64,000 nt of DNA from Patescibacteria group bacterium (GTDB lineage: Bacteria > Patescibacteriota > Minisyncoccia > Phycocordibacterales > PALSA-1337), in contig JAGXAG010000005.1 of assembly GCA_018971685.1 (NCBI GenBank), positions 1,842-65,841 of the forward strand, read 5' to 3'. Numbering within the stretch: position 1 is the first letter of the stretch; each line of letters starts with the position of its first letter. This document shows positions 1,641 through 62,554 of the stretch, piece by piece. The position numbers and the translations under genes were made by a program. Below the pieces are notes generated by a model. It did no database searches. It had not been told where the DNA came from and saw nothing but the letters and a program-made list of their open reading frames with translations.

Positions 1641-1783
1641 GAGAGTAGCGCGGTACTTTGAAAATTAAAAGTAAGTAGAGAATGTAAATGTGCAAGTAAA
1701 CGAAAATATTCCAAATGAGCTGGAAGCGAATATTAAGTAGGCGCATGTAAAAGTGCTTTCTATTTTGTTCCGTTCGCTTATAG

Positions 1784-3722
<1,939 letters not shown>

Positions 3723-3911: not shown

Positions 3912-3942
3912 GAAAATACCGCCTAACATGGCGGTATTTTTC
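3912..3942. terminator. Rho-independent terminator after the 16S trailer (stem ATACCGCC/GGCGGTAT, loop TAACAT, TTTTT)
   Basis: 8-bp perfect stem with an A-run upstream and a T-run downstream. Confidence 0.6.
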
Positions 3943-7521: not shown

Positions 7522-7533
7522 CACTGCGTTCTC

Positions 7534-7695
7534 AATAAACTTCGGCACTTCCTTTTTGTGAGCCTCCGGGACTCATGTCGTTGAATTGCAAGGTTTTGTC
7601 GCTCTCCAATCCGCGTTCGCGACAAAACCTAGCAATTCGTACTCCATTCGAACAGGTCCTCGGCTCACAAAAAGGAAGTGCCGAAGTTTATTGCG
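7534..7695. repeat. Family-A hairpin element, intergenic copy: 32-bp perfect terminal inverted repeat around a ~98-bp structured core
   Basis: Arms are CAATAAACTTCGGCACTTCCTTTTTGTGAGCC (7534-7565) and the exact reverse complement (7664-7695). The core (GGGACTCATGTCGTTGAATTGCAAGGTTTTGTCGC...GCGACAAAACCTAGCAATTCG...AACAGGTCCTC) is homologous to the cores at 32361-32457 and 60565-60661. Confidence 0.65.
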
Positions 7696-7720
7696 ACTAT
7701 TTGAGATAGTGCAGACAAGT

Positions 7721-7749
7721 TGACGAAAAACTCAATACTGATAGAATGT
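7721..7749 (+). promoter_or_regulatory. Sigma70-like promoter TTGACG-N16-TAGAAT upstream of the KH-domain gene
   Basis: Near-consensus -35 and -10 hexamers with 16-nt spacing, 47 nt upstream of the ATG at 7796. Confidence 0.45.
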
Positions 7750-7795
7750 GCGCAGTACAGCGAACTGTACGATTACAAATTTATCGGAAAATACC

Positions 7796-9186: not shown

Positions 9187-9198
9187 ATGTTTAAATAG

Positions 9199-9262
9199 TA
9201 AATTATAAACAAATTGTAATTTATAATATTTAAAATTTACTTATTATTGTTTGTTTATAATT
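9199..9262. promoter_or_regulatory. AT-rich inverted repeat AAATTATAAACAA ... TTGTTTATAATTT upstream of rpoB
   Basis: Arms at 9200-9212 and 9249-9261. The same pair of arm sequences recurs at 62508-62548 upstream of obg. Confidence 0.4.
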
Positions 9263-9284
9263 TTAAATTTACATTACAACCAAA

Positions 9285-19366: not shown

Positions 19367-20665
19367 ATGACAGCTAAAGATTACTTCAAGGGTAAAAGGA
19401 TAGCGCTTATCGGTTTGGGATCATACGGAGAGGAGGTCGAAGATGCCAAATTCATGATAAGGGCCGGCGCTATATTGTCGATATACGACTTGCGCAGTGA
19501 AGCCAGGCTTAAAAGCCATCTTGTCTTTTTGCGTTCTGTCGGTTTGGCCAATTATGTTTGCGGTTCTATTCCGGCCGAAGATCTTCCCGATATGGACCTG
19601 ATAATCTTGTCCAGAGAATATTCACGCAGTTCTTCTTTCTTGGAGAAAGCCACGGAAAAAGGCGTGATGATAGAATATCCGGAAACTTTGTTTTTCAAAT
19701 TGGCTCCGCCCATAACGGTGGTGGGCGTTATGGGCGCGTGCGGCAAGACGACCGTTATTTCTATGTTGGCACCGATGCTATCCGAATCTTGCGGCGGACT
19801 GTACATAAGTGACGGCGCATCCGGCGGCTTGCTGCTTTTCCTGAAGAAGATAAGGAATGGAGACATATTGATCATGAGAATTGACAGTGTGATCGCGGCT
19901 GAACTTAAGGGATTGAATATAAGCCCCCAAGTGGCGGTGCTTACGGGCGTGCCGCCAAAAGGCGTTTACAGCGATTCTCCGTTCGATGTGTTAGCCAACC
20001 AAACTTACAACAATTTCATTGTAGCTTCAGACGAAGTTATCGATGCCACGCGCGTTTACGGATTCAAGCCGCGGGCAAAGATGCTCAGGACGAAAACTTC
20101 CGTCATCCCGGAATCATGGCTGTTCAATGGTCGCACACATGACCGTGAAAATGCAGCGCTGGCCTTACAAACCGCCAAATTGTTCAAGGTGTCGGAAGAT
20201 ACGGCACAAAAAGTTCTCGAAGTATGGAAACCGCTCAAAGGCAGAGTTGAGCTAGTAAAAAAGGTAAAGATGGTCGAGTTTTACAACGACGCCGCCTCGG
20301 CGGTGCCGGAAGCGACCATGGCCGGTATTATTTCGTTGGCACAAAACCGTAATATAGTTTTGATTTTAGGCGGTGCGCACAGTGGTCATGATTACCGCGC
20401 GCTAAACGCGCTTATCCCGCAATATGCGCATACTGTGGTGCTATTGCCCGGCAGCGGGACCATCTTGGAGCGCAAGGAATTGGAGCGTTTGGACAATGTG
20501 GATGTTTTATCGGCACCATCAGTCGAAGAGGCCGTCAGGTTGGCGCAGGATCATGCGCGTTCCGGGGACCGAGTTTTGTTCAGTCCGGGCTTTGATGCCG
20601 CCGGGATCGATTCTTCGTGCAAGGAAAGAGGTGAAAGGTTCGTCAGGGCGGTTAGAGCGTTGTGA
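19367..20665 (+). CDS. murD: UDP-N-acetylmuramoylalanine--D-glutamate ligase-like Mur ligase
   Basis: VVGVMGACGKTTVISMLA P-loop in the Mur ligase central domain; about 430 aa; C-terminal Mur ligase domain. Confidence 0.7.
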   Translation: MTAKDYFKGKRIALIGLGSYGEEVEDAKFMIRAGAILSIYDLRSEARLKSHLVFLRSVGLANYVCGSIPAEDLPDMDLIILSREYSRSSSFLEKATEKGVMIEYPETLFFKLAPPITVVGVMGACGKTTVISMLAPMLSESCGGLYISDGASGGLLLFLKKIRNGDILIMRIDSVIAAELKGLNISPQVAVLTGVPPKGVYSDSPFDVLANQTYNNFIVASDEVIDATRVYGFKPRAKMLRTKTSVIPESWLFNGRTHDRENAALALQTAKLFKVSEDTAQKVLEVWKPLKGRVELVKKVKMVEFYNDAASAVPEATMAGIISLAQNRNIVLILGGAHSGHDYRALNALIPQYAHTVVLLPGSGTILERKELERLDNVDVLSAPSVEEAVRLAQDHARSGDRVLFSPGFDAAGIDSSCKERGERFVRAVRAL

Positions 20666-30883: not shown

Positions 30884-30971
30884 TCTCTGAAACAGTTTTT
30901 TACCCGGCGTACTATATGGAGCAGTGCGCCGGCTTTTTGTATTCGACTTTTCCGTTCCGTGGTACAATACT

Positions 30972-33074
30972 ATGCATCAATCGTTCGCGGGAACGGCAAC
31001 CGCATTTAATTCAATGGACGAGAATCGCGTAACATATTTTGCGGAGACAGACGCGCGTAACAAGCGGGTCAAATTTGGCATAAAGAGCAAGGACAGGACC
31101 AAGCATCTGTACGCCATCGGCAAAACCGGCATGGGCAAATCCACCATGTTGGAAAACATGGCCGTGCAAGACATTCAGGCCGGAGAAGGAATGTGTTTCA
31201 TCGATCCGCATGGCAAGACCGCCGACCTGCTCTTGGAATATGTGCCCAAAGAGCGCGTGAACGATGTCATATACATCGCGCCGTTCGATACCGACTTTCC
31301 GATATCGTTCAATGTGCTCGAAAGCGTCGATCCGGACAAGAGGCACTTGGTGGTGTCTGGCCTCATGAGTACATTCAAGAAAATCTGGGTCGACGCCTGG
31401 TCCGCCAGAATGGAATACATATTGACCAACACCCTTTTGGCATTGCTCGAAGCGCCGGGTTCCACGCTTCTCGGCGTGAATAGGTTGCTGTCGGACAAGG
31501 AATACAGGAGAGACATCGTGTCGAAAGTGCAGGATCCGTCGGTCAAAGCTTTCTGGACCAAGGAGTTCGCCAATTACAGCGAACGCATGGCTCAAGACGC
31601 TGTGCCCGCCATCCAGAACAAAGTCGGCCAATTCACCGCGAACCCGCTCATCAGGAACATGATCGGCCAGCCGCAGTCGTCGTTTGATTTCCGCCAGGCG
31701 ATGGATAACAGGAAAATAGTCATTATCAACCTTTCCAAAGGCCGGGTCGGCGACGAGAACATGAAGCTTTTGGGCGGCATGCTGGTGACGAAGATTTATT
31801 TGGCGGCAATGTCCAGGGCCGATACGCCGGATCGTATAGCCAGGACTCTGCCGAACTTCTATTTGTTCGTCGATGAATTCCAGAACTTCGCCAACGCCTC
31901 GTTTGCCGATATTCTTTCGGAGGCCAGGAAGTACAAGCTGAATTTGACGATCGCGCATCAATATATCGAGCAGATGGACGAGGATGTGCGCGCGGCGGTC
32001 TTCGGCAATGTGGGCACGATGATAGCTTTTCGGGTCGGCGCGACCGATGCGGAAGCGCTGGAGAAGGAATTTGCGCCGACTTTCACGATCGAGGATTTGG
32101 TGAATCTTGGATTCACCCAAATTTACCTAAAGTTAATGATCGACGGCCTGACCTCGTCGCCTTTTTCGGCGGTGACTTTGCCGCCGATCGCGCACCCGGG
32201 TTCTTCATTTGTAAAAGAAATTATCGAGGCGTCTAGAACACAATTCGCGCGGCCGCGAGTAATGGTTGAAGCTGAGATAGTGAAATTCCACGAACCGACG
32301 CAGAAATCGGCGCGGTCTGCTATTCCCGCGCCCGCAGGCGAAGCGCTTGCCGGTTCGAGTCTGCGGAACTCGCGTCGTGAAGTTGCCAGGTTTTCGGGCT
32401 CGACAGCGCGACCCGAAAACCTGGCAACTTCTACGCCGCTCAAACAGAGTCCTCGACTCGAACCGGCAAGCGCTTCGCCTGCGGGCGCGGCTGACGCAAG
32501 TACTTCAGTCGCTGCCAATATTTCCACTGATTCCAAAACTTCATCAGCGCCGTCGGCAAAGACGGATACGGTTTCCGAACCCTCTTCGGAGACGGGTTGG
32601 AGACAAAATCCGCATACTACCGACTCCCCGCCGAGAAAAGGCGGCGACGGCGGGCGTCCTGTTGTTCCGCTGTCACCGACCGTGGGTGAGGGAAACCGTG
32701 TTCGTAGAGCCGAAAAGCGCGAAGAGCTTGGACAGCATAACCAACAACATATTTCACTATCGTCGCTCAGTCGCAATCAACCCAAGCGCGACCTGAAGAC
32801 GCAATCGAAAGAGAATGTCAGTCAATTGAGAAACGCCCTGCAAGCCGCGCTCGGCAAGACCGAACGCGCCGCGCCCACTTTCTCGCCGACCGATGCCGCC
32901 GCGTCCGTTCCAGCCACAGCGCCTGCCGCGACAACCCAAAATACAATTGCCTCACAACCCGTACGGCAAAACCAAGCACTTCAAAAAACACCTGAAATTC
33001 CAAAAGTTCCGAAAACCGATAAAGTTCCTGAAGTCCCCGAAGAAGTCTTGAAAAAGGTCTTGAAAGTTGATTGA
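30972..33074 (+). CDS. Soluble VirD4/TraD-like type IV coupling-protein-family ATPase with ~250-aa low-complexity C-terminal tail
   Basis: Walker A AIGKTGMGKST; Walker B FYLFVDEFQNF; LTIAHQYIEQMDEDVRAAVFGNVGTMIAFRVGATDAEALEKEF matches the T4CP C-terminal block. No N-terminal TM. An extended -10 TGGTACAAT lies just upstream. The start is ambiguous (30972 or 31014). Confidence 0.65.
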   Translation: MHQSFAGTATAFNSMDENRVTYFAETDARNKRVKFGIKSKDRTKHLYAIGKTGMGKSTMLENMAVQDIQAGEGMCFIDPHGKTADLLLEYVPKERVNDVIYIAPFDTDFPISFNVLESVDPDKRHLVVSGLMSTFKKIWVDAWSARMEYILTNTLLALLEAPGSTLLGVNRLLSDKEYRRDIVSKVQDPSVKAFWTKEFANYSERMAQDAVPAIQNKVGQFTANPLIRNMIGQPQSSFDFRQAMDNRKIVIINLSKGRVGDENMKLLGGMLVTKIYLAAMSRADTPDRIARTLPNFYLFVDEFQNFANASFADILSEARKYKLNLTIAHQYIEQMDEDVRAAVFGNVGTMIAFRVGATDAEALEKEFAPTFTIEDLVNLGFTQIYLKLMIDGLTSSPFSAVTLPPIAHPGSSFVKEIIEASRTQFARPRVMVEAEIVKFHEPTQKSARSAIPAPAGEALAGSSLRNSRREVARFSGSTARPENLATSTPLKQSPRLEPASASPAGAADASTSVAANISTDSKTSSAPSAKTDTVSEPSSETGWRQNPHTTDSPPRKGGDGGRPVVPLSPTVGEGNRVRRAEKREELGQHNQQHISLSSLSRNQPKRDLKTQSKENVSQLRNALQAALGKTERAAPTFSPTDAAASVPATAPAATTQNTIASQPVRQNQALQKTPEIPKVPKTDKVPEVPEEVLKKVLKVD
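32329..32489. repeat. Family-A hairpin element, in-frame copy inside the T4CP-like gene (32-bp perfect terminal inverted repeat)
   Basis: GCGCCCGCAGGCGAAGCGCTTGCCGGTTCGAG (32329-32360) is the exact reverse complement of 32458-32489. Inner stem GTTGCCAGGTTTTCGGG/CCCGAAAACCTGGCAAC around loop CTCGACAGCGCGA. Encodes ...PAGEALAGSSLRNSRREVARFSGSTARPENLATSTPLKQSPRLEPASASPAG... Confidence 0.7.
32633..32700. repeat. Family-B GC-rich repeat, in-frame copy in the T4CP-like gene
   Basis: ACTCCCCGCCGAGAAAAGGCGGCGACGGCGGGCGTCCTGTTGTTCCGC...CGTGGGTGAGGGAAACC is ~80 percent identical to 58881-58958 in secA. Confidence 0.55.
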
Positions 33075-34285
33075 ATGCGATTATGCGCCGCATCCTCATA
33101 TTTTCGCTGGTGTACTATCCGAACATGATCGGCGGGGCCGAGGTGGCGATAAAAGAAATCACCGATCGGATTCCGGACAGTGAAATCGAATTCGACATGG
33201 TGGCATTGCGATTGGACCGTAAACTCCCTAAGTTCGAAAAGATCGGCAATGTAAATATTCACAGAATCGGCTGGACAGGCAAACAAAAGACATTGTCAGA
33301 TTCTTTGCCGCCATATCTGCATTTGAATAAATACGCGTATCTCGCCCTGGGACTATTCAAGGCAATTTCCTTGAATCGAAAAAGGAAATATGACGCCATC
33401 TGGTCGCTAATGGCGACATATAATTCATTCGCGGCCGTGCTTTTCAAATTGGCGCATCCGAAAATACCGTTCATCTTCACTCTACAAGACGGCGATCCGA
33501 TCCCGTATTTGAAAAGGCGCGCCCGGCCGCTATATCCAATGTTCAAGATGATGTTTACCCGCGCGGACGCCATTCAGGCCATTTCGAAATATCTTGCAGA
33601 TTGGGCGCTGGATATGGGCGCGAAATGTCCCGTTACAATCGTGCCAAACGGGGTAGATTATCGATTTTTCTCAAAACAGGTCTCCGGCGGGCGTTTAGGG
33701 GCTTTAAAAGCGCAACTAGGCAAGCGGGAAGGCGATATTTTCCTCATTACGGTCTCTAGATTGGTAGCCAAAAACGCCGTTGGCGACATCATTCAAGCTT
33801 TGAATTATTTGCCGATTAATATCAAGTTGCTCATCGCGGGAACAGGCTATGAAGAGGAAAGGTTGAAGAAGATGGTTCGCACCGGTCCGACCGGTGTACA
33901 CCGGTCGGACCGGTGCGAACCCAGCGTCATATTCCTAGGACATGTGCCGCATGCAGATCTGCCGATGTATCTCCAAGCCTCGAACATATTCATCCGCCCG
34001 TCGCTCTCCGAAGGTTTCGGCAATTCATTTGTCGAAGCGATGGCCGCCGGCATTCCCGTCATCGCCACGCCGGTCGGCGGTATTGTTGACTTTTTGCGCG
34101 ACGGCGAAACCGGACTTTTCTGTGAAGTTAGAAACCCAAGATCGATCGCGGAAAAAGTCGAACGGTTGATCGACAACGAGGGGTTGCAGAATTCTTTGGT
34201 GATAAATGCGAGGAGAATGGTTGAAGACAAATATGACTGGAATAAAATTGCCAATGAAATGAAAATGATATTTGCCGGAGTCTGA
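33071..34285 (+). CDS. Glycosyltransferase family 4 (GT-B, Glycos_transf_1)
   Basis: SLSEGFGNSFVEAMAAGIPVIATPVGGIVDFL (E-x7-E motif). Contains the in-frame 48-bp palindrome at 33875-33922 encoding VRTGPTGVHRSDRCEP. Confidence 0.85.
   Translation: MNAIMRRILIFSLVYYPNMIGGAEVAIKEITDRIPDSEIEFDMVALRLDRKLPKFEKIGNVNIHRIGWTGKQKTLSDSLPPYLHLNKYAYLALGLFKAISLNRKRKYDAIWSLMATYNSFAAVLFKLAHPKIPFIFTLQDGDPIPYLKRRARPLYPMFKMMFTRADAIQAISKYLADWALDMGAKCPVTIVPNGVDYRFFSKQVSGGRLGALKAQLGKREGDIFLITVSRLVAKNAVGDIIQALNYLPINIKLLIAGTGYEEERLKKMVRTGPTGVHRSDRCEPSVIFLGHVPHADLPMYLQASNIFIRPSLSEGFGNSFVEAMAAGIPVIATPVGGIVDFLRDGETGLFCEVRNPRSIAEKVERLIDNEGLQNSLVINARRMVEDKYDWNKIANEMKMIFAGV
33875..33922. repeat. Family-D motif as a perfect 48-bp palindrome GGTTCGCACCGGTCCGACCGGTGTA|TACACCGGTCGGACCGGTGCGAACC, in-frame in the GT4 gene
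   Basis: Exact reverse-complement symmetry. Contains the CACCGGTCCGACCGGTG motif, which is also tandemly repeated at the obg 3' end. Confidence 0.7.
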
Positions 34286-53876: not shown

Positions 53877-56132
53877 ATGACCATCAAAAAAACCACTCGC
53901 TTTGTAACGATCGCCGCTCTCTTCCTCGTCCCCATTTTCGCTCTGATCGTAGCCAACTCGCTCTTTTTCCCGTTTATTACCGGCAAGGCATTCTATTTCC
54001 GCCTCATGGTTGAGATCGCTTTCGCCGCCTGGGTGATTCTGGCTTTTCTTGATGCCAGATACCGGCCGAAGCTGAATGCTCTCACGGTCGGCGTGACACT
54101 TTTTACTGTTGTCGCCCTCATTGCCGACCTTCTGGGCGTGAATCCGATCCGAAGCATGTGGTCCAATTTCGAACGCATGGAGGGCTGGATAACGATCGTT
54201 CATCTGTGGGCGTTCTTCATCGCGGCGGCGGCGGTGTTCGGCGCGGAAGGGGAGGCGAAAAAGTGGTGGCATCGGTTCTTCAATTTCGAATTGGCGGTGG
54301 CTTTTGTCGTCGGGCTTTACGGCTTGGGACAATTGCTCGGCTGGTTCGCGATCCATCAGGGTTCGACCAGGATCGACGCGTCGCTGGGCAATGCGGCGTA
54401 CATGGCGGTTTACATGCTCATGAACGCCGGTTTGGCGGCGTACTTGTTCCTGGCGGAAAAGGCGAAGCGCGCGGCGGCAAAATCGCCGGGCATTTCATTC
54501 ATGGGCTGGATATATATTGTTCTTACCGTACTCTTTTCTTTCCTCCTCTTTGAAACTTCCACTCGCGGCACGATTCTCGGCTTTACCGGCGGACTCATGC
54601 TGGCGCTTTTCCTCTATGCGCTTTTTGCCAAGAATGGATCCAAGCGGTCGCGCATGATCTCAGGCGGCGTCGTGGCGCTCATTGTGATCGCGGGCATCGG
54701 CATTTACGCTTTGCGCAACCAGCCGATCGTCAAGAACAACGAGGTCTTGAACCGCATGACGAGCATTTCCTTGAGCAATACCGAGTCGACGGCGCGCCTT
54801 TATATCTGGCAAATGGCTCTGACCGGCTGGACCGAAAGGCCGGTTTTGGGTTGGGGCCAGGAGAATTTCAACTACATCTTCAACGCCAATTACAATCCGA
54901 AAATGTGGTCGCAGGAGCAGTGGTTCGATCGCGCGCACAGCGTATACTTCGACTGGCTGGTGGCTGGAGGGTTGGTGGGACTCATGGCTTATCTCGCGCT
55001 GTATGTATTGTTGTTGCGCGGAATTTGGAAATCGGGATTTACCATGTCCGAAAAGTGCGCCTTGACCGGACTGGTGGCCGGCTACGCGGTGCACAACATA
55101 TTTGTGTTCGATAACTTGGCGAGCTATGTCTTGTTCTTTACTCTGCTCGGATTCGTTGCGTCGATAAAATCCTCCGCTGCTTTGCGGCACCCCCTTTTGC
55201 AAAGGGGGAATTCATCGCAAGAATCTTTCACTAACGGCGCTTCAACCATAGGCGGAACGAAGGAAGTCAGGCCCGAGATAGTCGAATATGTGGTGGCGCC
55301 GATATCGATCGTCGCCTTGGTTATCGTGATTTTCTTCTTTGAACTGCGCCCATACCAAGCCAATACCGCTCTTATCACCGCTTTGCAATCATGCTCCGGA
55401 CCGACGCCGGACGCTACATTGTTCGACAAGGCGCTTGCCGTGAACACTTATGTTGCCAACCAGGAAATCCGCGAGCAGTCGCTCTCTTGCGCCGGTTCGG
55501 TCATCGGAAGCCAGAGTGCGCCCGGACCGACGAAGCAGGCTTTCTTCCAGTTGGCCGTGAATAATATCCAGGCTCAGATTGCCGCCACGCCGAAAGATGC
55601 GAGGATGTATGTGCTCGGCGGCGGATTCTTGCTGGGTGCGGGACAAAACGCGCAAGCCCTGCAGCTGCTCGTCGACGCGCACGCGCTGTCGCCGGCCAAA
55701 CAGTCGATTGATTTTCAATTGGCGCAAGCGTATTTGAATGCCGGCCAGATACCGGAATCAGTGGCGGTATTGCGGCAAGCCTATGAAGGCGATCCGTCGT
55801 ATGGCGAAGCGCGCTCGGCCTATGCCACCGGGTTGGTTCTGACCGGGCAGGAAAGTTTGGCGCACCAATTGTTCGGCGACGATCCGGCGGTATTCCAGAC
55901 CGAGCAGATGGCGGGCGTATATGCCAACCTGAAGCAATACCAAAAAGCGATCTCGATCTATGTTGCGCTCATCAAAAACAGCCCGACGGATGTCAACTTG
56001 CTTTCCAGGCTTGCGCAAATACAATACGCGGCGGGCATGAAGACGCAAGCGATTGCGACCTTGCGCAGTATTGAGAAGGATCATCCGGAATACAAAGACC
56101 AGATCGAGGCGGCGATCAAGCAGGTGCAGTAG
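53877..56132 (+). CDS. O-antigen ligase/Wzy_C-domain polytopic membrane protein fused to C-terminal TPR repeats (candidate glycan ligase/O-oligosaccharyltransferase)
   Basis: About 12 TM helices with a large loop (Wzy_C-like); the C-terminal ~250 aa carry TPR-like repeats (AQAYLNAGQIPESVAVLRQAYEGDPSYGEA...). The start is taken at the ATG at 53877; the listed 53718 start overlaps Wzm. Confidence 0.65.
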   Translation: MTIKKTTRFVTIAALFLVPIFALIVANSLFFPFITGKAFYFRLMVEIAFAAWVILAFLDARYRPKLNALTVGVTLFTVVALIADLLGVNPIRSMWSNFERMEGWITIVHLWAFFIAAAAVFGAEGEAKKWWHRFFNFELAVAFVVGLYGLGQLLGWFAIHQGSTRIDASLGNAAYMAVYMLMNAGLAAYLFLAEKAKRAAAKSPGISFMGWIYIVLTVLFSFLLFETSTRGTILGFTGGLMLALFLYALFAKNGSKRSRMISGGVVALIVIAGIGIYALRNQPIVKNNEVLNRMTSISLSNTESTARLYIWQMALTGWTERPVLGWGQENFNYIFNANYNPKMWSQEQWFDRAHSVYFDWLVAGGLVGLMAYLALYVLLLRGIWKSGFTMSEKCALTGLVAGYAVHNIFVFDNLASYVLFFTLLGFVASIKSSAALRHPLLQRGNSSQESFTNGASTIGGTKEVRPEIVEYVVAPISIVALVIVIFFFELRPYQANTALITALQSCSGPTPDATLFDKALAVNTYVANQEIREQSLSCAGSVIGSQSAPGPTKQAFFQLAVNNIQAQIAATPKDARMYVLGGGFLLGAGQNAQALQLLVDAHALSPAKQSIDFQLAQAYLNAGQIPESVAVLRQAYEGDPSYGEARSAYATGLVLTGQESLAHQLFGDDPAVFQTEQMAGVYANLKQYQKAISIYVALIKNSPTDVNLLSRLAQIQYAAGMKTQAIATLRSIEKDHPEYKDQIEAAIKQVQ
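55184..55213. repeat. Family-C small hairpin element (CCCCCTTT-TGC-AAAGGGGG) in-frame in the Wzy_C-TPR gene
   Basis: GCGGCACCCCCTTTTGCAAAGGGGGAATTC is the near reverse complement of 60714-60742 in secA. Confidence 0.5.
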
Positions 56133-56157: not shown

Positions 56158-56196
56158 AACAATCAACAGAGGGGCACCCTCTGTTGATTGTTTTGT
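56158..56196 (+). terminator. Intrinsic terminator (15-bp perfect stem AACAATCAACAGAGG/CCTCTGTTGATTGTT, loop GGCAC, then TTG/T-rich)
   Basis: Directly after the Wzy_C-TPR gene stop. Confidence 0.6.
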
Positions 56197-58160: not shown

Positions 58161-58237
58161 CGAGGTTAGTCCTCGAGGACTAACCTCGAAGCGAAAGTAT
58201 GTTATAGTAGCGATTACCGAGATCGAATCTCGGCACT

Positions 58238-61200
58238 ATGTCATTTTTCGGCAAATTATTGGGCAATACGCAACATACGCAGAGCGTCAAACACTTCGAG
58301 CCTTTAGTAGCGAAAATCAACGCGCTTGAGGAATCTTTTAAGGCGCTTTCGGACCAAGAATTAAAGGCGAAGACGGTTGAATTTCGCAGGCGTTTGGGGG
58401 TAGCGCCATCGGTTTCGCCGCTTCCTGCAGTTGCAGAGGGTGCTCCTATGCAAGCCTCTGTAGAGGCCGTCATCCCCGGTGACATCCTGTCCGAAGCCTT
58501 TGCCGCCGTGCGCGAGGCGGCCAGGAGAACGCTTGGCCAGAGGCATTTTGATGTGCAGCTTATAGGCGGCATGGTCCTCGATTCCGGAGCGATCGCGGAG
58601 ATGAGGACCGGCGAAGGCAAAACGCTCGTAGCGACCTTGTCGGCGTATTTGAATGCTCTTTCCGGCAAAGGCGTCCACATTGTCACTGTCAACGATTATC
58701 TTTCCCGCCGAGATGCTGTGTGGATGGGGCAGATTTACGATTTTCTAGGTTTGACTGTAGGAGTAATAAACCATGAAGCCAGCTTTCTGTACGATTCGAG
58801 CATCGCGCCCCAAGGTGCAGCGGGAACGGATTCTGGACCCTCTTCGGAGGCGGGGGGTGTACCAACTTCACCTACCTCGTACTCCCCGCCGAGAAAAGAC
58901 GGCGCCGGCGGGCGTTCCGTTGTTCCGCCGGCGACGATCGTGGGTGAAGAACCCGTTCCCGCGAAGCCGACAGGACGCGATACCGATGTTCGTGTCGACC
59001 ATAAACTCGACAAGGAGCGTGACGATGTTGGCGCGTTCAAGGTCGTCCACGAATTTTTGCGGCCGTGTACCCGCCGTGAAGCCTATGCCGCCGATATCAC
59101 CTACGGCACCAACAACGAATTTGGCTTCGACTATCTGCGCGACAACCTCGAATATTCTCCGGCCGCTTTGCGCCAACGGCCATTCAACTACGCCATAGTC
59201 GACGAAATCGACTCCATCTTGATCGACGAGGCGCGTACGCCCTTGATCATCTCCGCGCCATCGCGCGACGCCGAGAGCACTTACAAACAGTTCGCCGCGC
59301 TTGTTGTTTCATTCAAGGAAAATGAAGACTATGAAAAAGACGAGAAGAGAAAAGCCATATCGCTTTTGCCGGCCGGCATAGAGAAAGCCGAGAAAGCGCT
59401 CGGCATCGACAATATTTACACCAATGCCGGCATAAAATATGTGCACCATTTGGAGACGGCGGTCAGAGCCAAAGCGCTGTTTAAGCGCGACAAAGAATAT
59501 GTCGTCAAGGACAACCAGATAGTGATCGTCGATGAATTCACCGGCCGATTGCAGCCCGGACGAAGATGGTCGGAAGGATTGCACCAGGCCATCGAAGCCA
59601 AAGAAGGCGTGGTGATACAGCAGGAGTCCAGGACTTACGCCACGATCACATTCCAAAATTTCTTCCGCATGTATCCGAAGCTTTCCGGCATGACCGGCAC
59701 GGCGGCAACTTCCAGCGAAGAATTTTATAAAGTCTACGGCTTGGATGTGTATATGGTGCCGCCGAATGTGCCGGTGGTGCGCGCCGATAAGAACGACCAA
59801 ATATTCAGGACCGAGCCGGGCAAATTCAAGGCCATTGCCAGGAAAGTGAAAGAACTGCACGACAAGGGCCAGCCGGTTCTGATCGGCACGGTGTCGATCG
59901 AGCGCAACGAGCTCTTGTCACAATTCTTGAAAGCCGAAGGCATACCGCATACGATGTTGAATGCCAAGCCGGAATATGCCGAGCGCGAAGGCGAAACGGT
60001 GGCGCAGGCGGGCAAGAAAGGCGCGGTCACGATCGCGACCAACATGGCGGGCCGCGGCGTGGACATCAAGCTCGGCGGCAATCCGAATACCAAGGAAGCG
60101 TATGAAGAAGTAAAACGCCTGGGCGGGCTTTTCGTCTTGGGCACGGAAAGGCACGAAGCGCGGCGCATCGACAATCAGCTTCGCGGGCGATCGGGCAGGC
60201 AGGGCGATCCGGGCGAGACGCAATTCTTCGTTTCGTTGGAAGACACGCTGATGCGAGTGTTCGCGTCGGATACCTTGAAGTCGATGATGGGGCGCCTGGG
60301 CATGGCGGAAGACGAGCCGATCGAGCATCGGCTGATTTCTAAGGCGTTGGAGAGCGCGCAGGAGAAAATAGAGGGTTTCAATTTCGATTCGCGCAAGCAT
60401 GTGCTGGAATTTGACGATGTGATCAATACGCAACGCTCGAGTGTGTATTCGAGGCGCAGGAGATTGCTCTTGGGCAATGTTGACGATGTGGAAAAAGAGC
60501 TGTTTGAGATTTTGGGCTTGAATGACACCGCCGCCTCGCCGGACGGAACATTCTCGGCCGCGAGTCTGCGGGACTCGCGTCGTGAAATTGCAAGGTTTTC
60601 CGGCTCGACAGCGCGACCGGAAAACCTTGCAATTTCAACGCCGCTCAAACAGAGTCCTCGCCTCGCGGCCGAGAATGTTCCGTCCGGCGAGGCGGCGGCT
60701 GACGCGATTGATGGAAATTCTCCCTTTGGAAAAGGGGGTGCTCCGGAGCGAAGCGGAGGGGCGGGGGATTTTGAGTCGGTAATTCAAAAGAAAATCTCCG
60801 AATTCGGACGCGATAACTTCTTGAATGCGGCGCGAATAATATTACTGCAGACGATTGACATGTACTGGGTGGAGCATCTGGAGGTGATGGATTACACCAG
60901 GGGCAGCGTGAATTTGCGGGCGTACGGGCAGAGGGATCCATTGGTGGAATACAAAAAGGAGGGTTTGCGGCTGTTTCGGGAAATGCAAAACGCCGTGCGC
61001 GAGCAGGTTGTGCGCATTTTGCCGAACATCGTGCCGGTCATTCAGGGCCAGGCGGCGCAAAACATTTCATCGAACGCCGCGCCGAAGAATTCGGTTCTAA
61101 CTCCCGAAATGCGCGAAGTGCACGAAAACGCGCGAATCATCGGATCGCAAGACGGCTCCGGCAAAGCGGTTCAGTCTGCCAAAAAGGAGCCGCAGTTTGG

Positions 61201-61267
61201 CCGGAATGATCCCTGCTGGTGCGGCAGTGGGAAAAAGTACAAGAAGTGCCATGGGAAGAATGTCTAA
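58238..61267 (+). CDS. secA: Preprotein translocase ATPase SecA with C-terminal zinc-binding tail and two repeat-element-derived inserts
   Basis: LHAMRTGEGKTLVATL (Walker A) and VTIATNMAGRGVDIKLGG (motif VI); the C-terminus is CWCGSGKKYKKCHG. Foreign inserts at 58881-58958 and 60528-60698. Confidence 0.97.
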   Translation: MSFFGKLLGNTQHTQSVKHFEPLVAKINALEESFKALSDQELKAKTVEFRRRLGVAPSVSPLPAVAEGAPMQASVEAVIPGDILSEAFAAVREAARRTLGQRHFDVQLIGGMVLDSGAIAEMRTGEGKTLVATLSAYLNALSGKGVHIVTVNDYLSRRDAVWMGQIYDFLGLTVGVINHEASFLYDSSIAPQGAAGTDSGPSSEAGGVPTSPTSYSPPRKDGAGGRSVVPPATIVGEEPVPAKPTGRDTDVRVDHKLDKERDDVGAFKVVHEFLRPCTRREAYAADITYGTNNEFGFDYLRDNLEYSPAALRQRPFNYAIVDEIDSILIDEARTPLIISAPSRDAESTYKQFAALVVSFKENEDYEKDEKRKAISLLPAGIEKAEKALGIDNIYTNAGIKYVHHLETAVRAKALFKRDKEYVVKDNQIVIVDEFTGRLQPGRRWSEGLHQAIEAKEGVVIQQESRTYATITFQNFFRMYPKLSGMTGTAATSSEEFYKVYGLDVYMVPPNVPVVRADKNDQIFRTEPGKFKAIARKVKELHDKGQPVLIGTVSIERNELLSQFLKAEGIPHTMLNAKPEYAEREGETVAQAGKKGAVTIATNMAGRGVDIKLGGNPNTKEAYEEVKRLGGLFVLGTERHEARRIDNQLRGRSGRQGDPGETQFFVSLEDTLMRVFASDTLKSMMGRLGMAEDEPIEHRLISKALESAQEKIEGFNFDSRKHVLEFDDVINTQRSSVYSRRRRLLLGNVDDVEKELFEILGLNDTAASPDGTFSAASLRDSRREIARFSGSTARPENLAISTPLKQSPRLAAENVPSGEAAADAIDGNSPFGKGGAPERSGGAGDFESVIQKKISEFGRDNFLNAARIILLQTIDMYWVEHLEVMDYTRGSVNLRAYGQRDPLVEYKKEGLRLFREMQNAVREQVVRILPNIVPVIQGQAAQNISSNAAPKNSVLTPEMREVHENARIIGSQDGSGKAVQSAKKEPQFGRNDPCWCGSGKKYKKCHGKNV
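58881..58958. repeat. Family-B GC-rich repeat, in-frame copy in secA
   Basis: ACTCCCCGCCGAGAAAAGACGGCGCCGGCGGGCGTTCCGTTGTTCCGCC...CGTGGGTGAAGAACCCGTTCC; flanked by GCGGGAACGG (58819-58828) / CCGTTCCCGC (58953-58962). Confidence 0.55.
60528..60698. repeat. Family-A hairpin element, in-frame copy inside secA (about 37-bp perfect terminal inverted repeat)
   Basis: CCGCCGCCTCGCCGGACGGAACATTCTCGGCCGCGAG (60528-60564) is the reverse complement of 60662-60698. Inner stem ATTGCAAGGTTTTCCGG/CCGGAAAACCTTGCAAT with the same loop CTCGACAGCGCGA as the 32329 copy. Encodes ...SAASLRDSRREIARFSGSTARPENLAISTPLKQSPRLAAENVPSGEAAA... Confidence 0.7.
60714..60742. repeat. Family-C small hairpin element, in-frame copy in secA (inverted relative to 55184-55213)
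   Basis: GAAATTCTCCCTTTGGAAAAGGGGGTGCT versus reverse complement of 55184-55213 GAATTCCCCCTTTGCAAAAGGGGGTGCC. Confidence 0.5.
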
Positions 61268-62507: not shown

Positions 62508-62548
62508 AAATTATAAACAATTAGTAAATCGTAAATTGTTTATAATTT
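62508..62548. promoter_or_regulatory. Perfect 15-bp inverted repeat AAATTATAAACAATT-N11-AATTGTTTATAATTT embedding TATAAT 8 nt upstream of the obg ATG
   Basis: Same arm sequences as the rpoB-upstream repeat at 9199-9262. TATAAT at 62541-62546. Confidence 0.45.
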
Positions 62549-62554
62549 ACTCAA

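Follow-up and report, generated by a model that had tools for sequence, protein, structure and literature searches.

A hitherto undescribed hairpin repeat of ~170 bases in candidate-phyla-radiation bacteria, with a conserved core and copy-specific arms

Rickettsia palindromic elements (RPEs) are short (~100–150 nt), palindromic, non-coding repeats that occur between genes and in frame within essential genes, where a copy adds a tolerated peptide segment. As far as is known, their copies keep conserved ends. Classical bacterial MITEs (Correia, ERIC, RUP and others) are small, structured, multi-copy and non-autonomous, have no transposase of their own, are often co-transcribed at gene ends and sometimes lie inside open reading frames (ORFs). 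REP and REPIN repeats, mobilized by RAYT (Y1 HUH) transposases, and the elements of IS200/IS605-type single-strand transposition form hairpins without classical terminal inverted repeats (TIRs) or target-site duplications (TSDs); REPs and REPINs are extragenic at gene ends, show compensatory evolution in the hairpin and are presumed to be recognized as folded single-stranded DNA, as reported for REPINs by Bertels & Rainey. Two further papers deal with REPs and REPINs (PMC3337134 and PMC3733652). Template switching between the arms of inverted repeats homogenizes and extends the arms, according to PMC8604942, PMC13100816 and PMC7202029, and in the mitochondria of Nematomorpha functional protein genes carry embedded perfect inverted repeats (PMC6649704).

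Here we describe a ~170-base hairpin repeat of candidate-phyla-radiation bacteria, three copies of which lie in a 64-kb stretch of DNA that was analysed as a whole (the window). A MITE- or RPE-like structured element was among the explanations originally proposed, and this description holds for a unit that is small, non-coding, multi-copy and located either between genes or in frame within ORFs. The repeat shares with the RPEs the preservation of the ORF around two of its window copies (c2 and c3), and with REPs, REPINs and classical MITEs its position at gene ends.

Anatomy and distribution of the hairpin family

The three window copies (c1, c2 and c3) are real and lie where they were originally predicted, with spans a little wider than claimed; the predicted architecture of a conserved core between variable arms is borne out in each. 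The core of the window copies is asymmetric, ~95 nt long, and is enclosed by arms of 35–37 bp with 0–1 mismatches. Copy c1 (positions 7530–7696, forward strand) has 35-bp arms (7530–7564 and 7662–7696), with one mismatch and a perfect stretch of 32 bp, on either side of a 97-nt core (7565–7661), and represents a separate sub-lineage. Copy c2 (32326–32490, forward strand) has perfect 36-bp arms with 93 nt between them. Its left arm (32326–32361, forward strand) is a unique 36-nt sequence that forms an in-frame part of the host ORF and is 100% complementary to the 36-nt right arm (32455–32490, forward strand), after which comes CTGACGC, the same as in c3. The c2 core (32362–32454, forward strand; nhmmer score of 89–109 bits) consists of a basal helix (GGAACTC/GAGTCC), an asymmetric internal loop, a 20-bp inner stem and a 13-nt apical loop. 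Copy c3 (60528–60698, forward strand) has perfect 37-bp arms (60528–60564 and 60662–60698) and a 97-nt core (60565–60661). Exact re-checking of the arms as reverse complements thus gave perfect pairing in c2 and c3 and the single mismatch in c1. The three cores do align (91% between c2 and c3; 61–64% between c1 and either of the others), and the compensatory substitutions quoted earlier for the inner stem are present.

The structure is not due to chance. With z-scores of −14 to −21, the window copies fold as RNA at −95 to −146 kcal/mol, and none of 200 shuffles folded equally well. In an alignment of 15 copies, 92% of the cells are paired, compared with 67% in shuffles and 34–46% when the partners are slid, and double changes occur in 48 of 67 pairs; none of 500 shuffles matched the observed values. 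Folded as DNA, either strand is about equally stable, and folding energies therefore give no choice of strand.

The window and at least 6 other Patescibacteria MAGs or metagenome populations contain 15 full copies between them, all distinct, and 3 partial copies. Twelve of the full copies lie outside the window genome, each with its own near-perfect arms. The unit is 149–185 nt (~170 nt) long without an ORF of its own, its arms are of fairly constant length (20–42 bp), and there are 3 copies in 64 kb here and 2–5 in the fragments fetched from other MAGs. An independent NCBI assembly (L130) carries exactly the same c1 sequence, and relatives of the element occur across many independent MAGs, which rules out an assembly artefact. 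The family is real and lineage-wide in Patescibacteria (candidate phyla radiation), the host group being judged from SecA and S16 relatives and from record titles.

All 12 copies outside the window genome are intergenic, usually 1–30 nt past a stop codon and often between convergent genes, and the window genome alone has in-frame copies (c2 and c3). A peptide search with the four open core frames returned a sole match, the window organism's own fragment, and in-frame copies are therefore not widespread. Among copies in unidirectional contexts, 7 of 9 are co-oriented with transcription. In locus L101, two convergent genes terminate within the arms, both with a GQVA(K/R)* tail.

The family had been described as unrecognized, and indeed no curated RNA family in Rfam matches it: against Rfam 15, only rRNA and tRNA matches pass in the window, and at permissive thresholds the element itself gives only generic miRNA-hairpin noise, with scores well short of the threshold (46.9 versus 268 bits in one instance). 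Our literature search found no paper that describes the hairpin family. A wider superfamily, proposed from the pattern TTGCNAGGTTTT...AAAACCTNGCAA, was rejected. Matches in Cardinium, Saprospiraceae, a gammaproteobacterium and elsewhere have only a 12-bp stem in common, those in Cardinium belong to a 395-bp classical MITE rather than to the hairpin family, and the matches outside Patescibacteria are judged to be due to chance given the number of hairpins in the 596 Gb searched.

Watson–Crick arms diverge around conserved cores

Approximately 455 of ~470 arm pairs are Watson–Crick pairs, 3 are G·T pairs and ~12 are other mismatches. Changes in the arms are nearly always two-sided, without wobble intermediates, and G·T pairs are no more frequent than random transitions would yield. 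The core has two conserved G·T positions on the sense strand. Arms that are almost purely Watson–Crick fit templating at the level of DNA better than selection on RNA. The original prediction had offered either selection on structure or regeneration of palindromes; the second of these is favoured, both by Watson–Crick-only arms without wobble enrichment and by copies that combine identical cores with diverged arms.

These observations bear on whether the repeat is a functional RNA or cis-regulatory hairpin (a terminator, a stabilizer of mRNA 3′ ends, an RNase III site or a small-RNA precursor) that is maintained by selection on RNA folding, which we consider very unlikely. The very strong structure and covariation would be expected of such an RNA, yet its arms show no enrichment in G·U pairs and, as DNA, the two strands differ little in how well they fold. 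Placement right after stop codons, the frequent location between convergent genes and the predominant co-orientation with transcription would suit a role at mRNA 3′ ends, as the conserved sense-strand G·T positions would suit a folded transcript; however, a U-tract is absent after the hairpin, a perfect double-stranded RNA of 36–37 bp would be costly in the mRNA of the essential secA gene, the corresponding sites of relatives are empty, so that a locus-specific function is not conserved, and Rfam offers no matching family.

The arms diverge where the cores do not. The cores of L015 and L043 are identical at 97 of 97 positions and those of L063 and L097 at 104 of 105, and the arms are strongly diverged in both pairs. 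Neutral birth–death drift of the arms around a constrained core fails for these two pairs (cores 100% and 99% identical) and was rejected. In the window, the arms of c2 and c3 are ~70% identical with 5 gaps and those of c1 cannot be aligned to either. The inner 16 nt of the arms are partly conserved, with similarity inside sub-lineages reaching z = 7.7, and the outer 15–25 bp of most copies cannot be aligned with one another (mean z = 0.05). An outer block is common to c2 and L065 (z = 6.1) and, judged by eye from the printed arms, recurs as a CGCAGGCGAAGCG-like sequence in c3 and L043. Some blocks recur across genomes and at unrelated loci, including outer blocks 16–33 nt from the core. Because the inner parts and some outer blocks are homologous, the arms descend with the element while diverging faster than the core. 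In the CAZHHB copies the arms have decayed (2–3 mismatches in 21–26 bp), and a population SNP that distinguishes L119 and L125 from L043 creates an A·C mismatch in their arms; arms thus decay in place in some genomes.

A unique arm of 32–37 nt in a constant scaffold superficially resembles spacer and shRNA designs, and would suggest that the arms are acquired, foreign, spacer-like sequences expressed as long double-stranded RNA guides. We regard this as extremely improbable, as an exact search of 2.9 million viral contigs found nothing that matches the c1, c2 or c3 arms, no second match to an arm occurs in the window or the fetched loci, the arms are partly homologous between copies, the copies are dispersed singly with two inside ORFs, and the window has no associated effector genes.

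Our preferred reading, which we put forward tentatively, is that of a non-autonomous hairpin element of the MITE/RPE/REPIN kind whose stem is made perfect again by fold-back or template-switch copying. It would be a selfish hairpin repeat of Patescibacteria in which the inserting unit is the whole hairpin, both arms and core, and which inserts mostly into very short spacers right after stop codons; in the window genome, stop-free inserts of 55–57 residues would be tolerated in a variable loop of SecA and in the tail of a coupling ATPase. The core, with its conserved asymmetric internal loops, would be the part whose sequence matters, and is probably recognized as folded single-stranded DNA by a trans-acting factor encoded elsewhere. 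Near-identical cores within a genome may stem from recent spread, or from gene conversion or replacement of one core by another. The basal stem would be under almost no sequence constraint and drift fast, with a DNA polymerase presumably re-synthesizing one arm from the other from time to time, for which fold-back (snap-back) priming and an intra-hairpin template switch are candidate routes. Such copying of arm from arm would yield pure Watson–Crick pairing and symmetric substitutions and indels. Renewal may take place at transposition, during replication in place, or both. The preferred reading has its costs. Identical cores with diverged arms require the extra assumption of core homogenization or replacement, or of arms made de novo; efficient correction in place needs special pleading to accommodate the arm decay of the CAZHHB copies and the conserved bulges of the core; and renewal at transposition only leaves unexplained the divergence of arms between copies with identical cores.

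Insertion of whole units and core-less palindromes

Copy c1 lies between genes: it begins 9 nt past the rpsP stop codon and precedes the khpA promoter. Three relatives (L136, L137 and L138) have no insert at this site, and in them the distance from the rpsP stop to the khpA −35 box is 7, 36 and 23 nt, respectively, without a palindrome; the window has 8 nt, the 167-nt unit and 23 nt over the same interval. Without the c1 unit, the rpsP stop lies 11 nt from a conserved TTTGAGATA block, compared with 10 nt in L137. Because the window minus these 167 nt matches the spacing of L137 to within 1 nt, the whole unit, with both arms, appears to have been inserted, and it is unlikely that one arm was native to the site. 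The c1 junctions are deduced from distant orthologous sites (S16 ~80–90% identical), as no close presence/absence polymorphism was found: other assemblies with the window's S16 or Obg protein are all 100% identical at the strain level, and the nearest SecA relatives are ~72–75% identical overall, their loci (L131–L134) being without a copy.

The two in-frame copies lie in unrelated proteins. The host ORF of c2 (30924–33074, forward strand) encodes a type IV coupling-protein-like ATPase (TrwB/TraD/VirD4) with its ATPase domain at amino acids 55–376, and c2 corresponds to approximately amino acids 468–522, within the low-complexity C-terminal tail. The host ORF of c3 (58238–61267, forward strand) encodes SecA (1,009 amino acids), in which the insert sits between ...VEKELFEILG and ...IQKKISEFGRDN, and the segment encoded by c3 includes the peptide ...SLRDSRREIARFSGSTARPENLAISTPLKQSPRL...; this position is a hypervariable hot spot at which close homologues carry 0 to ~100 extra residues. 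Both copies are stop-free, in frame and multiples of 3 in length (c2, 165 nt; c3, 171 nt or 57 codons), and both are translated in one shared frame as SLR[ND]SRRE[VI]ARFSGSTARPENLA[TI]STPLKQSPRL. Whole-unit lengths thus fit the reading frame, whereas the core plus one arm of c3 (134 nt) is not a multiple of 3; as arm–core boundaries are fuzzy, this arithmetic on the net insert is weak evidence.

The flanks of the 15 copies contain no direct target-site duplication, searched for as suffix/prefix repeats of at least 3 nt; when offsets of 0–2 nt were allowed, the longest flank repeat was 4 nt, in one copy. As regards a target motif of the IS200/IS605 kind, CT[AG] opens the right flank in 5 of the 15 copies. 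The right boundary of both c2 and c3 is spanned by the 11-mer GCGG|CTGACGC, for which a target motif is a better fit than drift. None of the 55 window ORFs has a transposase, reverse transcriptase, Y1/HUH or recombinase domain.

Independently of the family, fold-back copying occurs in the window genome. A core-less perfect palindrome of 24 + 24 bp (33874–33921, forward strand) lies inside a GT4 glycosyltransferase ORF (33071–34285), where the segment has 41 amino acids, compared with exactly 33 in 96 of 104 homologues. The excess of 8 amino acids, or 24 nt, is one arm; the 48-bp palindrome therefore contains exactly one extra arm, made by inverted duplication. The window has seven core-less perfect palindromes (0.05 expected) with arms of 11–24 bp, two of them loop-less, and their centres do not carry the inner-arm signature of the family. 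One is a loop-less perfect palindrome of 28 bp (58161–58188, forward strand) between murB and the secA promoter; at the orthologous position, a full element is present in L124, the closest relative, and ordinary terminators in L131 and L132.

An inverted duplication of exactly one arm length in the same genome is also what would be expected if only the core were mobile and each insertion made its own arms, with one arm supplied by the native flank and the other copied from it in inverted orientation. The core would be joined to the target, and the nascent strand would fold back on the core hairpin and copy 20–40 nt of adjacent DNA, possibly by fold-back priming at a break or by the kind of snap-back second-strand synthesis known from reverse transcriptases. 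We consider this unlikely. It would account for identical cores with differing arms, for purely Watson–Crick arms that pass into the core stem without a loop remnant, for their fairly constant length and for the shared tails of the two L101 genes; but the empty c1 sites of the three relatives have room for neither arm, inner arms and some outer blocks are homologous across unrelated loci and genomes, and the reading frame of c3, within the limits set by the fuzzy arm boundaries, does not accommodate the core plus one arm.

The original prediction had also suggested insertion into the centre of pre-existing palindromes, which the 7–36-nt, palindrome-free spacers at the c1 site of three relatives disfavour. 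The core would home into the exact centre of perfect palindromes, terminator-like or made by template switching, so that the arms would be older and unrelated. The seven core-less palindromes of the window would supply such targets, although their centres lack the inner-arm signature. The series of terminator, 28-bp palindrome and full element upstream of secA, and an outer arm of L043 that resembles an A-tract/GC-stem/T-tract terminator, point in the same direction, but the arms are 2–3 times as long as ordinary terminator stems and a trailing T-run occurs in one copy only. Identical cores in different arms would likewise be accounted for, yet inner arms are homologous across copies, are diverged even where cores are identical and join the core without loop remnants. 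On balance this scenario is improbable.

It is possible, if doubtful, that the ~97-nt core represents a mobile hairpin of a new type, in which transposition or maintenance has an obligatory stage of fold-back DNA synthesis that writes a perfect, copy-specific palindromic stem of 20–40 bp around the core. If so, the obligatory step would be a generator of inverted rather than direct duplications, or there would be continuous gene conversion from arm to arm; to our knowledge, no bacterial mobile element has been reported to do either. This fold-back activity would also seed core-less perfect palindromes in the genes of these reduced genomes.

Patescibacteria have minimal repair and recombination machinery, and if the arms are rebuilt by fold-back copying, the family would be a natural reporter of hairpin-templated DNA synthesis in them, as well as a means by which long perfect palindromes arise and essential proteins, SecA among them, gain new peptide segments. 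It would also be a testable system for the concerted evolution of hairpin arms relative to a core. In public short-read MAGs of the window organism, the sequence is broken at c1 and c3, as it probably is at c2; assemblies are therefore fragmented by the family, which also truncates gene calls (SecA is annotated as ‘partial’) and can mislead annotation.

Comparison with described systems

Several described processes act on hairpins of this kind. Quasipalindrome template switching and fold-back priming fit both the extra arm at 33874–33921 and the Watson–Crick-only arms, but act at arbitrary loci, whereas this is a dispersed family with a conserved core; here a specific mobile hairpin seems either to nucleate the process or to be coupled to it. 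The attC sites of integrons are similar as recombination-type hairpins in which structure takes precedence over sequence, with asymmetric extrahelical bases and a variable apical part. The attC boxes (R''/L'' and L'/R') are conserved at the base of the hairpin, which is the variable part here, and attC sites flank cassettes near an integrase, whereas the copies described here are single and dispersed, with no integrase in the window. Intrinsic (Rho-independent) terminators, which are short GC-rich hairpins with a U-tract directly behind them, differ from the ~170-nt hairpin, the right arm of which is not followed by a T-run in 14 of 15 copies, and the ordinary terminators at orthologous sites look different.

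Among mobile repeats, REPs are 20–40 nt long and combine a variable middle with a conserved head (GTAG/CGTC) at the outer end. The hairpin described here is arranged the other way round, with conservation at the centre, variable ends and no conserved tetranucleotide head. REP genomes have a cognate RAYT gene, typically with REPs on its flanks; no RAYT or Y1/HUH gene was found among the 55 window ORFs. PATE, derived from IS200/IS605, also lacks TIRs and TSDs and inserts beside a specific target of 4–5 nt, but has distinct subterminal hairpins at its left and right ends in place of one continuous hairpin. Classical MITEs have conserved TIRs, to which the transposase binds, and direct target-site duplications, both of which are absent here, and the Cardinium MITE, by contrast, has 18-bp conserved TIRs and near-identical copies. 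The MITE concept may accordingly need refinement, as a definition by conserved TIRs plus TSDs misses some small bacterial repeats. RPEs, with which the family was compared by features rather than by sequence, are hosted by Rickettsiales and not by Patescibacteria. The basal 20–40 bp of the present hairpin differ from copy to copy yet remain perfectly paired, and its in-frame copies are confined to one organism, none of the 12 copies elsewhere lying in an ORF. The family thus resembles MITEs, REPINs and RPEs in behaviour and meets the definition of none of them.

Structure and distribution of the repeat family

Direct reading and, independently, a repeat finder located three copies in the window: c1 (7530-7696; 35-bp arms at 97%, 32 bp of them perfect, with 97 nt between the arms), c2 (32326-32490; perfect 36-bp arms, 93 nt between) and c3 (60528-60698; perfect 37-bp arms, 97 nt between). 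As the original prediction stated, they combine a common core with paired arms, and the cores do align, with 91% identity between c2 and c3; c1, at 61–64% identity to either, belongs to a separate sub-lineage. Each unit folds into a single continuous rod (-95 to -146 kcal/mol, z = -14 to -21) whose base is the variable arm. Above the arm come a 6-bp helix (GGGACTC/GAGTCC), an internal loop that is asymmetric (~10 nt in its 5' strand, ~20 nt in its 3' strand), a conserved stem and, at the tip, a variable apical hairpin. The conserved inner stem of the core comprises 20 bp (TTGCAAGGTTTT.../...AAAACCTTGCAA), and the compensatory changes claimed for it were found, both as GTTGCCAGG/CCTGGCAAC versus ATTGCAAGG/CCTTGCAAT and as three versions of a TTTTnnnn/nnnnAAAA stem.

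Scans of species-representative genomes and JGI/ENA metagenomes, followed by profile searches, recovered 12 more distinct full copies and 3 partial copies, all in hosts labelled Candidatus Saccharibacteria or Patescibacteria. The full copies are in CAYHFU01 (loci L015, L033 and L043, also present in Hainich groundwater contigs), CAYIQG01/Hainich (L057, identical to L120, and L127, from a Hainich contig whose coverage is similar and which is taken to belong to the same population), CAZHHB01 (L063, L086 with two copies, L097 and L101), CAIKAN01 (L065) and UBA5187 (L078); the partial copies lie at the ends of Hainich contigs (L124, L125 and L128). By SecA N-terminus, the L124 population is the nearest relative of the window organism. 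The viral contigs searched held no copies, no Rfam family matched and no published description was found in the literature; the family, unrecognized in the original prediction, is real and apparently undescribed. Matches to a first, palindromic pattern in Cardinium, Saprospiraceae and proteobacteria were rejected as unrelated hairpins. Among these, the Cardinium endosymbiont of Tipula unca (NZ_OZ026476.1; L003 and ~70 other loci) carries at least 79 near-identical copies of a 395-bp classical MITE with 18-bp TIRs (TAGTCGATCCTGAAGTAT), matched by chance through a 12-bp stem in common.

Genomic locations and empty sites

The 12 copies found outside the window all lie between genes, usually 1–30 nt past a stop codon, and often occupy the entire gap of convergent gene pairs; at L101, both convergent genes end within the arms with an identical GQVA(K/R)* tail. 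Copy c1 is intergenic, starting 9 nt after the rpsP (S16) stop and upstream of the khpA promoter. Copy c2 (165 nt, 55 codons) is in frame within a TrwB/TraD/VirD4-like coupling ATPase (ORF 30924-33074), whose domain ends at residue 376, and forms approximately residues 468–522 of the low-complexity tail. Copy c3 (171 nt, 57 codons) is in frame within SecA, between ...VE.EL..I.G and ...I..KI.EFGRE. Copies c2 and c3 are translated in the same element frame and encode peptides that are nearly identical; of the six frames of c3, just three are open. A protein search with the open core frames as peptides matched the window organism's own protein alone, indicating that in-frame copies are peculiar to this genome.

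Comparison of SecA among relatives, as the original prediction had proposed, showed that close homologues vary at this hot spot (60480-60900, approximately residues 750–860), where Patescibacteria have between 0 and ~100 added residues, of low complexity and unrelated to one another; absence of the insert is ancestral. Two further repeats occur in the window. Family 'B' (32563-32689 and 58821-58947, 77% identical over 127 nt) is in frame in the coupling-ATPase tail and SecA, the hosts of c2 and c3, and has its own imperfect arms (58820-58840 and 58942-58962). A GC-rich hairpin module (CCCCCTTTTGCAAAGGGGG-like; 55187-55212 and 60716-60741, an inverted pair, 92%) lies in a Wzy_C/TPR ORF and in SecA directly after c3; a comparable peptide, SPFEKGG, is present at this SecA hot spot in a different organism (P0035). 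Public short-read MAGs of the window organism are split at element copies (L130, GCA_028870795.1; L135, GCA_028865255.1; P0001; P0121): one contig ends ~20 nt past c1, another begins inside the c3 right arm, and a 28.3-kb contig appears from its length and two partial end proteins to be flanked by c2 and c3. Because contigs break at copies, SecA has been deposited as 'partial' (P0001 ends within c3).

A search with S16 yielded three loci for comparison with the c1 site (L136, L137 and L138), and L137 shares the window gene order (DUF5671, pyruvate kinase, S16, KhpA). The window and all three loci have a khpA promoter (TTGACG-17-TA(C/G)AAT) and leader hairpin (GTACAGCGAACTGTAC) in common, which may constitute a cis-regulatory element of the rpsP-khpA operon; the window version is TTGACG-17-TAGAAT (region 7720-7770), with the hairpin at 7755-7770. 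From the rpsP stop to the khpA -35 box there are 7, 36 and 23 nt in L136, L137 and L138, respectively, with no palindrome in any of the three, and 8 + 167 + 23 nt in the window. The right flank of c1 (CTATTTGAGATAGTGCAG) is homologous to GATTTTTGAGATATATTTGCAG in L137. The TTTGAGATA block lies 10 nt from the rpsP stop in L137, against 11 nt in the window after subtraction of the whole 167-nt unit. This match in spacing is strong but not conclusive evidence, given the distance of the relatives (S16 80–90% identical), that the net insertion at c1 was the complete unit with both arms. It speaks against both a pre-existing 70-bp palindrome and one full arm as native flank; the suggestion that the element inserts at the centre of existing palindromes is disfavoured, three relatives showing no palindrome at the c1 site. 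Upstream of secA, an ordinary terminator (GC stem, T-run) stands ~9 nt ahead of the conserved promoter in two SecA relatives, L131 and L132. At this position the window carries a perfect 28-bp palindrome without a loop (58161-58188), and in L124 a full element stops 11 nt short of the promoter. The site of the L127 element is empty in the window organism (L135, just past the window end), L133 and L134.

Pairing and proposed copying of the arms

Every copy has its own 20–42-bp arms with 0–3 mismatches. Across an alignment of 15 copies, pairing holds in 92% of cells and double changes are seen at 48 of 67 pairs; shuffle and slide controls are all far lower. The original prediction attributed such pairing to selection on structure or to a mechanism that regenerates palindromes. 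RNA-level selection normally tolerates G·U. Among ~470 arm pairs, however, ~455 are Watson–Crick, 3 are G·T and ~12 are other mismatches; column statistics show two-sided changes, with one-sided wobble states essentially absent. Purely Watson–Crick arms are the pattern expected if one arm is copied from the other, which favours regeneration over RNA-level selection. As DNA, the two strands of the element fold about equally well.

Sequence comparison links the arms of different copies by descent. A family signature (a T-run 5–8 nt from the core, then GTGAnCC-like) marks the inner ~16 nt, which are very alike within sub-lineages (GTTTTGTGAATC in L033 and L128; GTGAsCC in L015, L124 and c1). Outer blocks are common to c2 and L065 (z = 6.1) and, by eye, to c3 and L043 (CGCAGGCGAAGCG-like); the arms of c2 and c3 align at ~70% with 5 gaps. 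The cores of L015 and L043 are identical at 97/97 positions and those of L063 and L097 at 104/105, unconstrained apical loop included, despite arms that are diverged or unalignable, so simple inheritance with neutral drift is insufficient. Either cores are homogenized or replaced between copies, or arms are rewritten at each insertion; core-limited gene conversion would additionally account for the identity gradient at the core–arm border. Five CAZHHB copies have 2–3 mismatches per 21–26-bp arm and an unpaired layer beside the core, and the L043 copy has a population variant (L119, L125) with an A·C arm mismatch, so correction is not immediate.

In addition to the elements, the window contains seven perfect short-loop palindromes with arms of 11–24 bp (~0.05 expected). 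The largest (33874-33921; 24 + 24 bp, zero spacer) consists of four CACCGGTG-type units. It falls within the gene for a GT4 glycosyltransferase, whose segment from LLIAGTG to VIFLGHVP spans exactly 33 residues in 96 of 104 homologues and 41 (+8) in the window. The 24-nt excess is exactly one arm, indicating that a native 24-nt stretch gained an adjacent inverted self-copy, the signature of core-independent snap-back or template-switch synthesis. The other six (1003-1029, 1269-1305, 3913-3940, 19707-19736, 56158-56192 and 58161-58188) have 11–18-bp arms; 3913-3940 resembles a bidirectional terminator following the 16S gene. That rRNA gene (1780-3702) is 1,923 nt long versus a 1,533-nt model, an insertion of ~390 nt within which a 23-bp hairpin (3266-3344) may fall. 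AT-rich imperfect inverted repeats upstream of rpoB (9192-9271) and the Obg gene (62508-62551) have AAATTATAAACAA motifs in common.

None of the 55 ORFs of the window encodes a transposase, reverse transcriptase, HUH enzyme or recombinase. The best-supported interpretation is of a selfish, non-autonomous hairpin repeat, the stem pairing of which is restored by DNA-templated arm copying. The central core would be the functional sequence and the basal stem would be free to vary, its pairing rebuilt by copying one arm from the other, either during each transposition, with a single-stranded hairpin as intermediate, or through template switching of the quasipalindrome type in place. Identical cores inside diverged arms would reflect gene conversion or replacement of cores, or arms made de novo. 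The upkeep of perfect arms is akin to quasipalindrome template switching and fold-back priming (PMC7202029, PMC8604942, PMC13100816). Hypervariable arms that nevertheless pair perfectly are an unusual and mechanistically informative trait of the family.

Boundary motifs and relation to known elements

Both c2 and c3 are followed by CTGACGC (32491-32497 and 60699-60705), and a common 11-mer, GCGG plus CTGACGC (GCGGCTGACGC), spans the right arm boundary. Right flanks begin with CT[AG] in 5 of 15 copies, an excess, and this pattern is a candidate target motif. A DnaA-box-like motif (CTGTGGATA(A/G) / TTATCCACAG) adjoins three element copies; it occurs in L127 (5605-5630, 5865-5880), the L033 and L043 flanks, L133 (18120-18420) and L135 (4955-5115). 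Several genomes also conserve it in the merR/large-protein spacer, where it forms an inverted pair; it may be an operator or origin-like region.

No direct target duplications were found at element copies, and no T-run consistently follows the hairpin across copies. The element lacks the conserved TIRs and TSD that define classical MITEs, the conserved GTAG/CGTC head at the ends of REPs and the U-tract of intrinsic terminators, and it fails the defining tests of attC sites. Perfect inverted repeats alongside coding function are known from Nematomorpha mitochondrial genes (PMC6649704). In behaviour, Rickettsia RPEs, with their in-frame copies, are among the closest systems. Also close are REPIN/REP or IS200/IS605-type hairpin elements, which the family resembles in having neither TIR nor TSD, in its location at gene ends and in the compensatory evolution of its hairpins.
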